From the NCBI GenBank assembly GCA_965261545.1, contig CBDHDF010000010.1, forward strand, positions 416,001-480,000: a stretch of DNA of 64,000 nucleotides, given 5' to 3'. Positions within the stretch are counted from its first letter, which is position 1; the number at the start of each line of letters is the position of its first letter. Position numbers and translations under genes: made by a program. The DNA is from Bdellovibrionales bacterium (GTDB lineage Bacteria > Bdellovibrionota > Bdellovibrionia > Bdellovibrionales > UBA1609). Below, piece after piece: positions 1,554 through 13,174 of the stretch. The notes under the pieces are model-generated. The model saw only the letters and a list, made by a program, of their open reading frames with translations, made no database searches and was not told where the DNA came from.

Positions 1554-1617
1554 TTTTTATTGTCGATCAACATTTCTTTTTCCAATTCACCTCCCCATAC
1601 TAACTCCGCCAAGATGA

Positions 1618-1716
1618 GTCAGTTATCCACAGACTCATCCATGGCGACGCTGCGGCTATGGCCCTCGGAGCCACAATAAAGCAGCGCTGCTGTGGGTGAG
1701 TCTTGTGGATAACGGC
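1618..1716 (+). repeat. Long hairpin with DnaA boxes in the stem, copy 1 (inside ISL3, downstream of transposase)
   Basis: GTTATCCACA-GACTCATCCATGGC...GCTGTGGGTGAGTC-T-TGTGGATAAC. TTATCCACA at 1623-1631 and TGTGGATAA at 1704-1712. Homologous to 4309-4406. Confidence 0.85.
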
Positions 1717-2522
1717 GGCTCTCCACACAAGTGATTTGGTAGCCCTGTCCTCCGTGTTTTTATGTACAAATCTTAGGAATAACCTGTACATCCAGTTTTT
1801 AGCTATTTCCCTAGGGAATTTGGACTTTAGGCTCCGAGAAACTCGGATATAGCCATTAATTTGCTGCAATTCTGTACTGAGTTGGTGGTTAGGATATTGG
1901 GAAAAGAGTCCCAACTGTGTCTTCTTCAAATGGCGCATAGTCCCCCCTTTGGTGAAAGTTTCTCTTTAATTTTTATATTAACATACGTTTTTTTGAGGGA
2001 AAAAAGTGAGCAAGGATGTCTTTTAAGAAGAAAAAAATCAGAGAGGTTCTCGGAGAACATGGATAAGAATTCTACCTCATAGAGAGGTTCCCACGCCTCC
2101 TAAAACCTACATAAAAAATAAATGAAGAATAAAATATCAAAAATTATTTCTCTGAAAAAACACGTCAAGTATTTTTTGAAGTTGATGCGCAACGTAATGT
2201 TATTTCCCTGAAGGAGGTTTGAAATCACCACGGTGGAAACACAGGTTGATCCAACTCTTCCTCTCATATCAAGTAACCAGTTGATAGCCACATAAGTCAC
2301 TGAAAGGGAGGGGCTGTGAAAGGTTCGTCAAGAGAGGGGGGGGAACTTATTTTATTTTTCCGTTTTATGTAAGTAACTGAATTTACACGGATTATGTTTG
2401 ATGGACTCCATTTTAAAGCATAAAATCTAAAGGGAAGGCATGTAAATACTTAAAACTACTTAACTTTCTTCCCTGGACAGGAACTAACTAGTCGCTGTCG
2501 CGAAATAGACTTAAGAAATCCA

Positions 2523-2963
2523 TCATTCAGCTTCAAGGTGGTCTTTTTGATAAATATAATTTTCAATTTGCATAAGATTTTTAAATGGACTCCTCTCCTG
2601 AAGATAGCGAGTAGAGAATTCTGGGTCAAAATGGTTCATTTTACACATATCCATGATGATTTTTGCTTTTGGCCCCACTGTCCTTTTTGATGTGTTGAAG
2701 TGCTCAACAATCTCATCCATGGAAACATATGGTGACGTCTTGCTATCATAAAGAAAGTTAATTCTCCCAATGGCATGAATAATCCCCGCAGCCCAAATTT
2801 CTACTCTTCCTGTCATGTAAGGGACTTGTCTTTTTCGAGACATTCTTGCTACTACACCGTGACAGAGGTTTTTATACTCATCGTTTATATATTGGTCACA
2901 AAAATCACTAATAGCCTTTTCAAGTTCTTTCCTTCTTGGTTGAATGATTTGCTTCTTTTTCAT
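2523..2963 (-). CDS. DUF6398-like hypothetical protein, passenger gene inside the IS
   Basis: WAAGIIHAIGRINFLYD motif recalled from DUF6398 proteins. AGGAGG RBS precedes ATG 2963. Lies inside the IR. Confidence 0.7.
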   Translation of the reverse strand: MKKKQIIQPRRKELEKAISDFCDQYINDEYKNLCHGVVARMSRKRQVPYMTGRVEIWAAGIIHAIGRINFLYDSKTSPYVSMDEIVEHFNTSKRTVGPKAKIIMDMCKMNHFDPEFSTRYLQERSPFKNLMQIENYIYQKDHLEAE

Positions 2964-4308
2964 TGGGCCTCCTGTTAACCTTATTACCATGTTTCACCTC
3001 ATGATAAAGGATTATCGCTATGAGTTTATGCCCAGAAGGCCTCGAAACCAAGGTCCACCCTGCCAAGGTATCTATTATCGTCACAGAATCCGATCCTCTG
3101 ATTCAACTGGCCAACCACGTCGATTGGAGCTATCTGTCGTGTCTTGTCATGCCCGACTTAAAAGCCACGACTGCAAAGGGTTTTTGGTGGCTAGGAAGAA
3201 AGCTCTTTTTAAGAGTTCATCTAGCCGTGCTGCTGCTTCAGGTTCTATTCAAACTCACGGATCGAGGGGTGGAGCAACGGATAAAAGAGACGGCCAGTTA
3301 TCAGCTTTTTTGTGGTCTAAATATCCTCAAAAAATGGTGTTGTCCCGATCATACGAAAATAGAAAAATTTCGCAATCGACTGACGGAAGAGACTCACAAA
3401 GAAATAGGAGATTATATTCTTCGCTTGGCTCAATCCCTGGGGTTTGCAGACGCCTCTCATTTGGATGTCGATTCGACCGTTCAGGAAGCCAATATGGCTT
3501 ATCCCTCCGATGCCAGTCTTTTGAAAAAGTTGGCTCAGAAGTGTTACAAAATTCTTTCGTATCTTCAAGAAAAGCAGAAGACCTACTTACCATCGGGTAT
3601 AACCATAGATATCAAAGCCATCATCAAGGCCGCTCGAAAGTATTTTTTTCTAGCCAAAAATTGTGTATTAGAGAAGAAGAGGGAGGTATTTTCAGACCTT
3701 CACAGTCTTGTAAAGTCAGAGTTAAAAGCCTTTATAAGGTTTGCAGAAAATCTTTCTCCACAGGCTCTAGCGAGTCTTCCTTGGAACCACCGAGAAGCCG
3801 TCACAGAAGTGAGAGACAAGGCTTGGAGATACCTTTTGGACGTGGCCCATTTTGTAAGAACTCACACCATCAAGCCTGGCAAAATCCTTGCCTTCAAATT
3901 GTGTGCGGTCGCCTGTATCAAAAAGGGGAAGTTAGGCAAAGACAAGGAGTTTGGGAGGGTCTTCCAAGTCGGGCGGATTGGTGGAAATTTTATTGTTCCC
4001 TATTGTTAGGCGCCAATTAAAATTGGCCATTTTTAGAAGCCGTCGCCAATGAAAAACGGCCAGTTGATGATGTACTGATTTAGTTATTCTTCGTTCAGAG
4101 TTTAGTCAAGTGTCTTTATTTTGCTCATCATTTAACTCGGACTATGCCACAAGATTCTGAGGAATGATTTTCTGCCCACCACTTTTGGCATGACCCCAAA
4201 TGCATCCTTCAGCCCTATGGCAGAGGTAAATGGAGTATTTTTCAGGATTCCTTGGCGCAGCTAATGTCTAAAGCTCCGCGAGAGTGACGAGCAAATAGTA
4301 CGGTAAAA

Positions 4309-4406
4309 GCCAGTTATCCATAAATTTATCCATGGCGACACTGCGGCTGTGACCCCGATGTCTAGCAACGCAGTGCTGCTGTGGATAAATTTTGTGGATA
4401 ACTGGC
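4309..4406 (+). repeat. Long hairpin with DnaA boxes in the stem, copy 2 (inside IS21, just past istB stop)
   Basis: GCCAGTTATCCATAAATTTATCCATGGC...GCTGTGGATAAATTTTGTGGATAACTGGC. TGTGGATAA at 4380-4388 and 4393-4401. Confidence 0.85.
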
Positions 4407-4814
4407 GAGTTCCTTCCCCAAAAGTGGGGATCTCTAATGAACTTCTTTGGTTGAACTTTCCTCTTTGCTCTGTTTAGACTTGGCTTTTGCCGATTCGGTT
4501 CTCCAACTTTCTTTTCCTTCAATGTTGAGGGTTTCACAGTTGTGAATAATTCGATCAACAGCAGCAGCGGTGGTAATAGGGTTAAGAAACACCTTATCCC
4601 ATTCAGAGTAAGTTAAGTTTGTAGTGATCATGAGACTTTTCCTTTCATATCGCTGAGATATGAATTGAAAGAAAAGATCAGCACCCTCTGTGCAGGAAGC
4701 TGTATAGCCAAGTTCATCACAAGCAATAAGATCAAAACGGTCTAATTTCTTAAAAAGAGCATTCAATGAGAGTTCTTTCTTGCTTTCACGCATTGTTTCA
4801 ATAAGTTCATGAGT

Positions 4815-6231
4815 CAATGCCGTTTCCTTAAGCCACCACACCCCTCTGCCTCTGCGTTAAGCTATTTCTTTTAAAAGAACTCCCAGCGCTTTTGATAGAC
4901 CTTTCATAGCTTCTTTTGAAGTGCCTCCTCTTCTCCATTGAAATCTTCATCAGCAACTTTATCTGCTTCCTAAATTTCTGATAGAGCCCCGCAACAAAAA
5001 GAGGGATGCTATCCATTATGAAATCAAGAATCAGTTTAAAGTTAGGTTTTTTGTAGTCATTTTTTACCAACTGATTCACACTGTCTTCATCCTCATTTAT
5101 GCTCATTTGAATCTTTGTATAATTGAAGAGCCAAAAATAAGAATACAGCTCTTGCAATATTCCATTAAGGCTTGTTGAGTGCCACTGCTCCATTTTCATT
5201 GTCGATGTAAAATCACGAAATGTCGTTTCTATTTCCCAACGACGAGAGTAAAGAGCAACCATATCCTTCTTGTCCAAGGAGCCATGCGGAAGATTAGTGG
5301 CCAAAACAGAGAACTCCCCAGTCTTTGGGTTTTTATACTTATAGAGATGAATGACCACCCCCTCAATAACCATTCGTGAATACCAACCTGGGCCATTAAA
5401 TAAATTTACAATGGGGATAAAAGTAGAGCCTCGCTTACAACGCGCAATAAAGAAGTTACTGGCTTGAGCATGGGCCTTAATAATCTCTGTAGATAAATAA
5501 AGCCTATCGTAGAGAGTTATGCTATTACTCTCAAAACTACCTATCATTTGAATAGCATTGGCGATTTCGTTGAGAGCGGGAGAATAGCAAAGATTCTTTG
5601 TCACACCCGATAAAACGTCATAAGCATGAGATAGATACATACGTAAGAAATGAGTTTCCATCTCATTTGGGCAAGGGTACCCACAATAACCCTCCTTTAA
5701 AAGATCTTTAGAGCGAGGAAGTGCTAATTGGTCGCCATCTATGGCATAGATATAAAAACCATGAAACGTTTTTCTCAATGGTTCGTAGTCTGTAATCAGA
5801 GATTCAAAGATATCTTTGAAAAATAGGTAAGAAATACTTTGACGTATCTTGCTGAGACTGCTTTTGACTGGCATGAGAAGCAGGTCACCAAAATGAGTCC
5901 ATACCGTCTTAAGAGCGATTTGGTAGCCTTCGTAATTTGTTCCGGAAATAAGATAGATAATGGTAAAAAAGAAAATTTGAGGATTAAATTTTCGATTCCT
6001 TTTTTGTTTTTCTGGATCGACAAGGTGCTCTGGCTTGAAGGAAGAATCAAGTTTTGGTAGAATAAAATGGTCATCTGTGACGCGAACTCGTCATTTGGGG
6101 GCTTTCGAGATCAATATTGGATTGCATGTGACTTACTCCTTGGTTGAGGGTTGGGTGTAAAATAAAACAAGTCTTATTCTTGTCGATTTATCTAATGATT
6201 TCAAGAGATTTTTCTTAAGGAAACGGCATTG
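4815..6231 (-). mobile_element. IS4-family insertion sequence
   Basis: Perfect 18-bp IR CAATGCCGTTTCCTTAAG (4815-4832 / 6214-6231). 10-bp TSD GTTCATGAGT at 4805-4814 and 6232-6241. Confidence 0.93.
4828..6127 (-). pseudogene. IS4-family transposase, probably frameshifted near its 5' end
   Basis: YAIDG, YDRLY and LYSRRWEIETTFR (YREK-like) motifs. The main frame is open from 6090 to 4828, but the RBS-led ATG (AAGGAG, 6127) is one base out of frame. Confidence 0.75.
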
Positions 6232-6642
6232 GTTCATGAGTGGTGACCCATAAACATCGATAGCCTTGTTCACAGAGTGAACGAACTAGGGACATGGCCA
6301 AATGACTTTTCCCCATTCCAAAGCTTCCGTAAAACACAACATTACAGGCTTTTCTGACCCACTCTCCCTCTGCCATCCAATTAATTTGCTGAGCTGTCAC
6401 TCCCGTTCTTTTCTGGAAGTTATAAGTTTGGAGTGATTTAAGTTGAGGAAGCTTGGCCCCCTTAAGCAATCTTTTCACTCTCTGGGAATGCTTGTCAGCA
6501 AGCTCATTTTGAACGAGTATACCTAAATACTGTTCATACGTCTTTTTTGTTTTTTCGGCAACTCTAGCCGTTGCAACATATTCATCCGCCATCGCTGGAA
6601 GTCGGAGTTTTTTAAGAGAACCTATAAGTTCTTCGTGATTCA

Positions 6643-8109
6643 TTAAGAACCTCCTATGTTTGGAACAAGACTGTCATATTGAGACAATCTAGGTTGAAGT
6701 GGTTTTTGTTGGTCATTCAAATTAATTTTGGTGGGATTGCCTAAGAGCAAATCTTTTATGGATTTAAAGTCGAAAATCTCACGACTTTCTAATTGAAGCT
6801 CCATGGCTGTAGATAAGTCCTGCCAACTCACATGCTGAATCAAGTTGATAACTCTTAAATATTCATGCTCGGCACGGCTTGAATCTTGTTGCTTGAGGTA
6901 TTGATAAAAATTTTCAAACACATTTGTTGGAAAAAGAATGGATCGGTGAGCCCATCTTACCATGGCTTGCGGCTTACGAACTAAAGAGGGAAGGATATGT
7001 TCAAGAAGAAGACTATGCTCCCCATCAGGTTTTCTTTGATGGCGAGCGACAATTTCTTGCTTCCCTCCTGCACGATAGATCGTGACATGATAGGGACCCT
7101 GTACGGTTTTACAGGGAGATTGGATCACCTCATCAGGTATGGAATATGTGGTTTTACCTATTCTCAAAGTCCCATAACCATTACTTTGACAAATATTCAC
7201 CTTACAGAGAATATCTTCATCTCGTGGAGGCAAAGGCTTAAGAACTTTGGCCTCCTCCTCAAAGCGAGATTTGGTGGAGTCACTCTGATGCTGATCCATA
7301 TAAGACTCTAAAAACTGATTCAAATGATCCCAGTCTTTAAAAACAATTCCTTTGTTTCTAACAATATTTTTTATCCGAGAACTGAAGGTTCGAATATCAC
7401 GCTCCACATCTCCCTTGTCAGAGCCCTTCCCTGCGCGGCAGGGAAGAACCTTAAATCCATAGTATTGGATGGCTCGATCAAAAGATTGGGTGTAAATTCG
7501 CTGATTTCCTTTAAGAACTTTCTTCACACAGGGAGATAAATTATCAATACGGATGTTCGCACTCATCCCACCTATCTTTTCAAAAAAAGCATGCACCCCA
7601 TCGATGAAACACTCATAGACAAGAAAGGGGTAGGCACGAACCCAACAGGTGCCACTACAAGGCAATGTTCCAAAATGGAGATGAACGATCTGAACACCAT
7701 CGGCAAATGGTAAAGCAACCTTCTCCTTAAAATCAAACTGAGCCTGTTCTCCAGGATCATATCTTTGGCTGAAAAAACGCTCCTTGGGGCGAGAACCAAG
7801 AATCTCACAAACTCTTCTCTGAACCGTTCTCTCACTCCCACGATAACCCTCCTCAACTAATAGCTCATATATTTCACGGGCGGTGTTACTTGGGTTCAAC
7901 TTCAAAAAGTACTTCACCCGATCCATATATCCATTAAGGGGATCTGGGCGAGTTCTTTTGGACCTCGCCTTGTACTTCGGTGGGGTGTTGGACTCACAGT
8001 ACTTGCGCACCGTCTTACGATTGATCCCTAATTCACGAGATATTTCTGTCTTATTTTTACCACTGTGACTCAGGTCACGAATGCGGCCGAAAGTGTATTG
8101 ACTAATCAT
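6643..8109 (-). CDS. istA: IS21-family transposase IstA (ORF track extends to 8247)
   Basis: N-terminal HTH (EISRELGINRKTVRKY), PGEQAQFDF, IRIDNL and KGDVER motifs. GAGGAGG RBS precedes ATG 8109. Confidence 0.95.
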   Translation of the reverse strand: MISQYTFGRIRDLSHSGKNKTEISRELGINRKTVRKYCESNTPPKYKARSKRTRPDPLNGYMDRVKYFLKLNPSNTAREIYELLVEEGYRGSERTVQRRVCEILGSRPKERFFSQRYDPGEQAQFDFKEKVALPFADGVQIVHLHFGTLPCSGTCWVRAYPFLVYECFIDGVHAFFEKIGGMSANIRIDNLSPCVKKVLKGNQRIYTQSFDRAIQYYGFKVLPCRAGKGSDKGDVERDIRTFSSRIKNIVRNKGIVFKDWDHLNQFLESYMDQHQSDSTKSRFEEEAKVLKPLPPRDEDILCKVNICQSNGYGTLRIGKTTYSIPDEVIQSPCKTVQGPYHVTIYRAGGKQEIVARHQRKPDGEHSLLLEHILPSLVRKPQAMVRWAHRSILFPTNVFENFYQYLKQQDSSRAEHEYLRVINLIQHVSWQDLSTAMELQLESREIFDFKSIKDLLLGNPTKINLNDQQKPLQPRLSQYDSLVPNIGGS

Positions 8110-8234
8110 AAGATCCTCCTCATTGCTAACCTTTTGAGTTGCAAAAGGGAGGGACTCTGTGAGCTTAGTATCTATATCAGAAGAAGAGACTTCATTGTCT
8201 AGTATTTGAACACTCCCTGAAGATTGGTCACTTT

Positions 8235-8609
8235 TCATTGGCGACAACCTCCATATTGAAAGTGGGACATTTTAATTGGCGACGGCTTTAAGGGAAGCCT
8301 GTCTTCAGAAAGAAATTCCATGAAAATTGAGGCAAATGTTGGAATCTTGTGGAATTTAAATACTTTAGAAAATGGGCACAGCCTAAACAGGCTTTTCTTG
8401 ACTATATATTTAACCTCATTGAAATCCAGAAACAGTCTACAAAGGAGAAATATGGAACCTGAATAGGCTGTCATGGAAGGACTCTCCAACACGGAGCCCC
8501 TTTCCAGGTCGACAAGAACCCAAAAGGAGTTCTTATCAGCTCGGAGCCTTTTTATGAGTAATATCAATTGATTATATGCGTCTCGGTTGACAATGCCAAA
8601 AATCACCAT
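8235..8609 (-). CDS. Hypothetical ORF inside the IS21 left end
   Basis: Strong AGAGGAGG RBS before ATG 8609. No recognisable domain. Confidence 0.3.
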   Translation of the reverse strand: MVIFGIVNRDAYNQLILLIKRLRADKNSFWVLVDLERGSVLESPSMTAYSGSIFLLCRLFLDFNEVKYIVKKSLFRLCPFSKVFKFHKIPTFASIFMEFLSEDRLPLKPSPIKMSHFQYGGCRQ

Positions 8610-9215
8610 AGGTCCTCCTCTGAAAAGTGGCCACTTTTCATTGGCGACGGTGGGGCATTTTAATTGTCAGCTAACACCTATACTTGCACTTCTGTGAGAA
8701 TGGACGACAAGGAGTCATTGCCAGCTATATTGGAAGAACATCAAAAAATATTTGGCGAAGATATTTTAGAGTCAGTTACAACAGACAAGGGGTATTATTC
8801 ACAAGCCAACGTCAATCTCGTCAAAGATGTTGTGGGAAATGCAGATGGAATTCAAAGACCTGCCAACGTAAAAGAACAGGTCGAAGCCCCCCAGAAAGAA
8901 GAATTATACAATCGCAGGTCGGGGGTCGAACCTCTCATAGGGCATGTCAAAAACTTTGGATTAGCAAGAAGCAAGATGAAAGGGGATGGGGCCACACTGG
9001 CTTCGGGGTATCGCTCGACCATGGGGTTCAATCTGCACCAAATTATGAGAAATTTAGCGGTGACGATGCCAACTCCAAGCTTCAAGGGTGGGTAGAACAA
9101 GGGAAAGTTAAAAAGAGGCTACTTCAGAGCCCAAGTCCAAATGAGGGCACATAAACGGCCCTTTTTAATTTCGCGACAGCGACTAACTACTCCCGATCTG
9201 AATATTTGAAGGCAT

Positions 9216-12841: not shown

Positions 12842-13174
12842 TTACTTCTTTTTTTTGGGACGACCTACTTTTTTTGCCCCCACCTTCCTAGTGGCTCGTT
12901 TTTTGGTCGCTTTTTTGGCAGTTTTTCTAGTGGTGCTCTTTTTTGGACGGCCTACTTTTTTTGCCCTTACCTTTTTAGCGGTTTTCTTCTTTATAGTCTT
13001 TTTTGTTTTTTTCTTTGTAGTCTTCTTTGTGATTTTCTTAGCAGCCCTTTTGGTGACCTTCTTTTTTGGACGACCTACTTTACTAGCTCCCCTACTTTTA
13101 GCCGTCTTTTTTGTTGTTTTCTTCTTACTGCCTCTCTTCTTAGAAGTTTTAGCTTTTGCTTTTGTTTTAGGCAT
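12842..13174 (-). CDS. Lys/Ala/Thr-rich basic histone-H1-like DNA-binding protein with three KVGRPKK motifs
   Basis: 110 aa with no Asp or Glu. GGAGG RBS before ATG. Confidence 0.75.
   Translation of the reverse strand: MPKTKAKAKTSKKRGSKKKTTKKTAKSRGASKVGRPKKKVTKRAAKKITKKTTKKKTKKTIKKKTAKKVRAKKVGRPKKSTTRKTAKKATKKRATRKVGAKKVGRPKKKK

Follow-up and report, generated by a model that had tools for sequence, protein, structure and literature searches.

How does a transposase gene come to carry a second reading frame, on its own strand and free of stop codons along its whole length, and what could such a frame be for? The question is raised by a stretch of 64,000 nucleotides from a Bdellovibrionales bacterium (contig CBDHDF010000010.1, positions 416,001 to 480,000; the whole stretch is called the window, and positions are counted within it), in which an IS5/ISNCY-like insertion sequence (IS) has an open -1 frame, here called the shadow frame, that covers its complete transposase gene. 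The shadow frame is real, family-wide and under selection. An earlier reading of the letters alone (the original prediction) had noticed it, and had offered three roles: an overprinted Arg/Ser/Gln-rich regulator, a frameshift product, or a translated frame that shields the mRNA from Rho.

The open frame in the window copy

Both frames of the window copy are split by an inserted IS21 element, and the parts are as follows.

3020..4003, plus strand: 5' part of the transposase, with the DUF772 domain (PF05598, E 3.8e-11) and the first catalytic Asp region DVDSTVQE
8682..9095, plus strand: 3' part of the transposase, with D363, E411 and the motif Y-x2-R-x3-E-x6-K (PF01609, E 7.3e-07); stop TAG 9093-9095
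2944..4003, plus strand: 5' part of the shadow (-1) frame in the list of open reading frames (ORFs), first ATG 2944
8682..9154, plus strand: 3' part of the shadow (-1) frame, ending with TAA 9152-9154, 59 nt past the transposase stop and 32 nt before the element end
4004..8676, minus strand: IS21 element (TGT...ACA, inverted repeat I1 and I11-type ends I9, I21), splitting transposase and shadow frame
3999-4003 and 8677-8681, no strand: the two copies of the CCTAT target duplication from IS21, seen in the junction sequence

With IS21 and one CCTAT copy removed, the transposase has 465 codons from ATG 3020, and the -1 frame runs for 510 codons from ATG 2944 to TAA 9152-9154 across the join CTA-TAC-TTG, so that the reconstruction reproduces the frame as originally described. 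Over the transposase coding sequence there are no stops in the -1 frame, 32 in the +1 frame, and 22, 23 and 25 in the reverse frames. Four uninterrupted copies of the gene (one each on contigs C1 and C7, two on C11) likewise have 465 codons and a fully open -1 frame, and the open frame therefore does not depend on the reconstruction.

A stop arises in this frame where a transposase codon ending in T precedes a codon that begins with AA, AG or GA. There are 132 such junctions, and at 95 of them the residue could end in T; T-ending codons occupy 0 of these 95 stop-making junctions as against 125 of the 266 others, which puts a count on an avoidance first noticed by eye. Among 20,000 synonymous shuffles the frame was never open (mean 28.2 stops, standard deviation 3.6, minimum 13). 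A genome-wide codon-pair bias, named beforehand as a possible refutation, does exist; it is mild (T at 36% of risk junctions vs 46% of others in 1750 ORFs of at least 300 codons) and insufficient to explain the frame, and among the same 1750 ORFs only the five copies of the transposase gene are without a stop-making junction. Two other long ORFs contain stop-free stretches of the -1 frame, of 351 and 320 codons, within 712 codons (contig C7, reverse strand, offsets 153302-155441) and 602 codons (contig C11, plus strand, 70873-72682). In one further copy (L006) other DNA has taken the place of the left part, and three sites are changed, two missense and one silent for the transposase; the silent change creates a stop in the shadow frame, and these changes fit relaxation in a dead copy.

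Distribution and selection across the family

Homologues were compared at 85 loci (80 metagenomic and 5 genomic), with stops counted over the matched stretch; locus L002, which is interrupted by another IS, and the other copies of the genome itself stand outside this count. The -1 frame has zero stops in 40 of the 85, at 24-66% identity to the window transposase and 33-60% GC, where shuffles of the open homologues predict 10-28 stops. Three homologues are intermediate or frameshifted (2, 2 and 15 stops), and the remainder range from about 3 standard deviations below to 1 above their own shuffles, most of them near chance; with 40 of 85 at zero and most others near chance, the distribution is all-or-nothing. 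The +1 frame is open in none of the 85, and a reverse frame only in three identical GC-rich rows. The check on homologues thus upheld the frame down to 24% identity, although its loss in about half of them had not been foreseen. At 15 further loci from the same phylum the frame is fully open in 4 (L105, L113, L118, L119), open in frameshift-split segments in 2 (L114, L116), near-open in 3 fragments and closed in 6. Outside the family, insH1 of Escherichia coli IS5 has 8 stops in the -1 frame, which is also closed in 10/10 named plasmid IS5/ISNCY transposases, including IS1478, ISXca5 and ISMae6, and in 29/30 loci of NF033578, the exception being a 284-codon fragment of 65% GC with 5 stops expected. 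A search of viral contigs found no relative.

On a quick maximum-likelihood tree, rooted at midpoint only, the open/closed trait needs 7 changes (at least 6 of them forced by starred branches) where shuffles need 28. The closed elements group in shallow clades nested within a deeply branching open background, and all four rows at the greatest distance are open. This suggests an ancestral open state with several later losses, a direction that depends on the midpoint root. In the largest closed clade (L066, L068, L071, L078, L083, L088) a same-strand ORF of about 100 aa and unknown type terminates some 50-70 nt short of the transposase; it may serve as first cistron in place of the shadow frame.

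For comparisons between open and closed elements, L001, L003, L043, L053, L072, L079, L089, L094 and L096 were set aside as fragments, frameshifted, intermediate or duplicate. At C/T two-fold sites, 15 disjoint open pairs differ at 0/115 risk junctions vs 237/667 others, and 17 closed pairs at 49/197 vs 196/898, the zero being partly circular as "open" is defined by the trait itself. The independent evidence for selection is the bimodality together with the saturation of four-fold sites, with a difference of about 0.7 between distant open pairs, none of whose members has a stop. Stop purging is ongoing in open elements, and there is strong support for the proposal that a second frame is kept open by selection, since shuffles, genome-wide bias and homologues all failed to refute it.

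What the selection acts on is a separate matter, as stop-codon depletion alone is no proof of a protein-coding overlapping gene. A long ORF is held open beyond chance across homologues, as an overprinted gene would be; the purifying selection on a second product that would also mark such a gene was looked for as reduced synonymous variation in the transposase, and no reduction was found. Relative to the divergence of the transposase, open pairs show no less divergence at four-fold sites than closed ones, and if anything more (p 0.051), no conservative bias of shadow-frame substitutions was found (BLOSUM -0.085 vs -0.048, p 0.65), and third-position agreement is 1.061 vs 1.064 times the expected value. 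C-over-G skew is little different (-0.017 vs -0.064), and is confounded by the replacement of T by C. Counted from ATG 2989, the shadow product has 495 aa and an isoelectric point of 10.5, with 60 Arg, 66 Ser and 36 Gln; it matches no Pfam or NCBIfam family and has no predicted fold (pLDDT 36.4, pTM 0.15, from a 31-sequence alignment), and the N- and C-terminal extensions of the products are unrelated among homologues. Two candidate signs of a conserved protein were rejected: the C-terminal tails are A/G-rich in all three frames, and an "invariant PP" that MAFFT produced when aligning the shadow proteins is absent from the codon-guided alignment and was treated as an artefact. The sole match in a single-sequence search with the shadow protein is P0005, a hybrid of both frames. 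A profile search gave 126 matches, of which the 16 that were scanned against Pfam indicate no stand-alone gene (9 without family, 6 with a transposase domain of the window type, 1 Y2_Tnp), and the neighbours in the ESM Atlas are clusters of about 450-550 aa from several phyla with partial DDE_Tnp_1/DUF772, a kind of score that wrong-frame translations can likewise obtain.

Start, end and possible role of the frame

A -1-frame ATG, GTG or TTG lies 16-40 nt before the transposase ATG in 30/35 open elements, compared with 3/35 in their +1 frame and 8/36 in the -1 frame of closed elements; as the elements are related, Fisher values on these counts overstate significance. In four of the other five open elements an ATG is found at a greater distance (-43 to -85), and the fifth has ACG behind a strong Shine-Dalgarno (SD) sequence. 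A candidate start is present in 34 open elements: 16 have it behind an SD, mostly as GTG or TTG (ATG in 3/16), while 18 lack an SD; of these, 17/18 use ATG, several have a -10-like box 5-12 nt upstream, and the -10 score is at least 6.5 in 4/18, against a background of 4%. This is as expected if two initiation modes, one SD-led and one using a leaderless or short-leader ATG, operate in the family. Two signals bear on the start in the window.

2973..2981, plus strand: candidate extended -10 promoter TG-T-TAACCT, 7 nt before ATG 2989 (score 4.9, approximate weights)
3007..3011, plus strand: SD-like AAGGA of the transposase, within the first shadow-frame codons (six codons in), duplex energy -5.4 kcal/mol

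The start positions of the homologues make ATG 2989 (-31 from the transposase ATG) or 3001 (-19) the likely start in the window; both were among the starts first proposed, and the outermost, 2944, is not a likely one. The box at 2973..2981 suggests a leaderless mRNA that would open on the shadow frame. Folding of the start region revealed nothing specific. At the other side, the frame ends no more than 124 nt from the element end, or beyond it, in 33/33 cases with a located end, and passes through the right repeat in 10/33. Only two open elements stop before the transposase stop (-19, -13), and most extend at least 26 nt past it.

Bacteria couple mRNA fate to translation, and a weakly translated gene therefore risks polarity and decay. 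IS elements hold transposase translation low. IS10 is subject to Hfq repression (PMC5006887), and a coupled ribosome blocks Rho-dependent termination and pushes RNA polymerase forward (PMC7858274). The genome studied here encodes Rho. A full-length shadow frame would answer the risk of polarity and decay, and no such solution was found in the literature searched.

We hold it somewhat better than an even bet that the frame serves escort translation, in which ribosomes entering upstream carry the mRNA to its end. A single promoter close to the left end would drive transcription, and on the transcript the first start codon would be one of the -1 frame, 19-40 nt ahead of the transposase ATG, either SD-led or a leaderless or short-leader ATG. 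Ribosomes would traverse the whole transposase gene in the shadow frame and halt just past its end, covering the transposase start on the way, so that transposase initiation would be rare; the 1.4-kb message, kept ribosome-covered, would be finished (no Rho polarity) and uncut, and an occasional transposase ribosome could complete its passage on it. The shadow product, basic and unfolded, would be expendable. Any stop within the frame would bare the rest of the message and cripple the element, and lineages gaining a stronger transposase start would drop the frame altogether. Ribosome passage is suggested as the selected trait because the start is conserved, coverage is full, stops are purged and the sequence is otherwise free, and stop purging implies that an intact shadow ORF would be needed for the element to persist. 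Shielding from Rho fits best of the three roles originally offered; we infer both the translation and the protection from the sequences.

Several observations weigh against escort translation. The -10 weights are approximate, and a standard -35/-10 scan did not list 2973..2981. Open elements do have the weaker transposase SD (on average -4.8 kcal/mol, as against -7.0 in closed ones), which speaks for the escort reading, but this contrast lies between related clades, one loss (L097, -4.2 kcal/mol) runs in the opposite direction, and a transposase SD of -3 kcal/mol or stronger is still present in 31/35 open elements. Rho requires a rut of some length, and the last 60 nt or so of a message could stay free; coverage exceeds what Rho alone would need, so that RNase shielding or another end effect must be added. 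About half of the close family is without the open frame, including a copy in a Gammaproteobacteria metagenome-assembled genome and a copy on a Legionella plasmid. Finally, doubly synonymous sites in open pairs vary slightly more than singly synonymous ones (41/111 vs 344/1104, p 0.24).

That last excess, slight and non-significant as it is, would be in keeping with a functional protein, disordered and basic, which binds nucleic acid or the transposase and regulates transposition while tolerating almost any substitution; the doubly synonymous sites leave room for a weak constraint of this kind. Start and length are conserved as such a protein would have them, and small IS-borne overlapping or coupled ORFs that affect transposition are known, namely Ins5B/C (PMC11677980) and IS91 Orf121 (10.1101/2025.01.24.634351). 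We nevertheless regard a protein as unlikely, as synonymous divergence is unreduced, neither conservative bias nor a conserved window or tail is seen, and fold and Pfam/NCBIfam matches are lacking. Its composition follows from the transposase codons, with residue choice at free sites equal to that of closed controls, and a function of composition only would leave the purging of 3'-end stops unexplained; the overprinted regulator of the original prediction is on these grounds unsupported. Improbable, to a higher degree, is a role in making the insertion non-polar, whereby ribosomes bring read-through transcription to the right end so that downstream host genes are expressed, with the transposase start occluded. 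The frame does stop close to the right end, in the cases counted above it continues through the right repeat, and the largest closed clade has lost its 3' spacer along with the frame (16-27 nt in 12 loci vs 72-147 nt in open elements). Against this, no orientation bias is seen in the host genome, the nearest long frame past the right end being co-directional in 2/6 copies, many elements have an opposite-strand upstream passenger gene that would stay untranslated on read-through RNA, and there is no conserved terminator at the shadow stop.

A programmed or slippage frameshift that fuses both frames into a regulator or a second form of transposase is very unlikely, even if IS elements, those of the IS5 family among them, commonly use frameshifting (PMC5009743) and database hybrids exist (P0005 and 6/16 of the scanned profile matches). 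A single shift site needs one side open, whereas here the whole length is open; the shadow frame has its own conserved upstream start, and the hybrids switch at differing places, as mutated or mis-assembled copies would. Hardly any weight falls on an absence of selection, with the frame left by codon-pair or nucleotide-motif bias or by recent inheritance: the mild genome-wide T deficit before AA, AG and GA, which is also present in most closed relatives, would speak for bias, but the same triplets are common in the +1 frame, four-fold sites are saturated between zero-stop open elements, the effect is independent of GC (33-60%), and start codons co-occur with the open frame. Bias as the only cause is refuted by the shuffles, the stop counts of homologues and the paired-site comparison. 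A small remainder of probability goes to causes beyond these readings. Two further candidates were rejected: attenuation, as a terminator-like hairpin round the shadow stop of the window is not conserved and not called by the terminator scan, and insertion at host stop codons, which is not supported in the host genome.

The element and its place among known systems

The remaining features of the element and of its nested insertions are listed here.

2485..2490, no strand: left target-site repeat TAACTA, with an identical 6-mer at 9184-9189
2491..2506, plus strand: left terminal inverted repeat of the IS5/ISNCY-like element, GTCGCTGTCGCGAAAT (inverted repeat I2; ends recur family-wide)
9168..9183, minus strand: right terminal inverted repeat, complement of the left GTCGCTGTCGCGAAAT, next to the TAACTA target repeat 9184-9189
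2523..2990, minus strand: passenger gene DUF6398, 155 aa, divergent from the transposase (PF19935, E 1.5e-38)
6643-8247, minus strand: istA within IS21 (in 4004..8676 as a whole, NF033546 and NF033592 score over their cut-offs)
6215-6643 and 4434-4841, minus strand: istB halves, separated by an IS4 element (IstB Pfam match on each half)
about 4807-6239: IS4 element inside istB, with 26-nt inverted repeats

The nesting in 4004-8676 is thus triple, with IS4 in the istB of IS21 and IS21 in the IS5-like element. Repeats of 16 bp and target duplications of 6 bp are found in the window copy and in L004, L005, L007 and L008, and matching 6-mers flank both sides of other copies too (TAACTA, TATCTA, AAGTTA). 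The favoured target, at 2485-2490 and in the flanks of most loci, is TA-N-N-TA (TAACTA, TAGTTA, TAGCTA, TAATTA), which usually carries a stop codon on both strands and provides the shadow-frame stop in several elements. Left ends at 87-99% identity without a matching right end nearby lie on contig C7 (160249-160400) and on C10 near 814840, and are remnants or split copies. Between left end and transposase is a slot for exchangeable passengers, with DUF6398, small GIY-YIG nucleases, DUF6788, a KOW-like ORF, unknown ORFs or nothing (window 2523-2990; L025, L044, L048, L050, L058, L062, L066, L091), and passenger genes occur in open as well as closed elements. Carriers of GIY-YIG and some others have long composite terminal repeats at both ends (L045, L047, L048, L051, L055, L056, L061, L062, L070, L086), where the end motif and an inner copy of it pair into a hairpin, next to a GCGCAGCGAAGGATCTCG-type repeat.

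Elsewhere in the window, a palindromic element of about 95 nt, GTTATCCAC...GTGGATAAC, is present in two copies that are 83% alike, one after an ISL3 transposase (1617-1713) and the other inside the IS21 end (4308-4402). An ORF of 112 aa (1600-1938, minus strand) terminates in it; its N-terminus matches a much longer ORF on contig C11, and it is probably a truncated transposase start. At 12842-13174 (minus strand) lies a histone-like ORF of 110 aa, rich in Lys, Thr and Ala, with repeated KKVGRPKK units.

The transposase itself is an IS5/ISNCY-like DDE enzyme, as judged from its sequence. D151, D363, R407, E411 and K418 are invariant in 51 sequences, and Y404 is present in the protein P0121; the DDE triad and the motif Y-x2-R-x3-E-x6-K, which we take to be a signature of IS4/IS5-type transposases, are both present, as are the terminal inverted repeats and target-site duplication expected of such elements. 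With the long DDE elements of IS5 (NF033578; IS1478, ISXca5, ISMae6) and ISNCY (NF033593) it shares DUF772 with DDE_Tnp_1, the DDE and YREK-type residues, short terminal repeats and a target duplication. It differs in scoring below both curated cut-offs (transpos_IS5_1, NF033578: 174.3 bits, E 4.4e-51, cut-off 275 bits; transpos_ISNCY_1, NF033593: 141.3 bits, cut-off 325 bits), and identity to named elements is about 22-28%. The window element has a length of 2015 bp including the passenger gene and a 6-bp target of TANNTA type. Elements of the ISNCY subgroup ISDol1 measure about 1.6-1.9 kb and duplicate 6-7 bp in AT-rich targets, and the 6-bp target may recall this subgroup. A frameshift-fused orfA/orfB type was considered and rejected, as the transposase is whole in one frame and the overlap is total, not one of two partly overlapping ORFs.

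IS1414 is said to contain an overlap in the form of an embedded passenger. Other known IS overlaps are partial and frameshift-fused (PMC5009743). The small ins5B and ins5C of E. coli IS5 overlap the transposase gene of an IS5-family element and are reported to stimulate transposition, but lie on the opposite strand (PMC11677980). In IS91, orf121 precedes tnpA on the transposase mRNA, and it both secures the expression of tnpA and reduces the level of transposase. Unlike the shadow frame it extends only as far as the start of tnpA and works through a protein that acts in trans, and the transposase is of HUH type (10.1101/2025.01.24.634351). Pseudomonas olg1 and olg2 are long bacterial overlapping ORFs of similar size, but are antisense, young and genus-restricted, with purifying selection on the product (PMC8850804), whereas the shadow frame is same-strand and old and has no detectable product constraint. 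A full-length same-strand frame was found for no IS in the literature searched, outside which lie most subscription journals, ISfinder and supplements, and older IS descriptions could mention one.

We rate the architecture as categorically new for bacteria, with the reverse ORF of narnaviruses as conceptual precedent. Whether it also represents a new principle of bacterial gene control, in which an ancient IS lineage maintains a sacrificial full-length same-strand frame solely to load ribosomes on the transposase mRNA, appears to us evenly balanced. If so, completion and stability of an mRNA would be uncoupled from protein output, by a frame that outlived silent-site saturation and that lineages turn off as a unit, and such a frame could be a design element for low but stable expression. 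If instead the frame encodes a protein, it would be a same-strand overprinted gene of about 500 aa, conserved down to 25% identity of its host gene and matching in size the longest bacterial overlaps, which are antisense (PMC8850804).

The nearest parallel, by analogy, is the reverse ORF of ambigrammatic narnaviruses, which is needed for persistence and has been proposed to protect the RNA with ribosomes (PMC8316113, PMC8155312). In both cases a near full-length second ORF lies over the gene of an essential mobile-element enzyme, with stop avoidance in a subset of the family, and the viral ORF is reported to resemble no known protein, with an analysis that points to no functional product. The viral ORF is on the reverse strand of a eukaryotic RNA virus, whereas the shadow frame belongs to a bacterial DNA transposon and shares its mRNA with the transposase, whose start it overlaps; the reverse frames of the window transposase hold 22-25 stops and have nothing of the narnavirus kind. 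Requirement and translation were shown for the virus, and are proposed for the shadow frame. Sister clades with the frame open or closed, individual silent substitutions by which it closes, and intact elements in several copies make the family a natural experiment, in which the narnavirus idea of an ORF selected for being translated, and not for its product, meets a test in bacteria.

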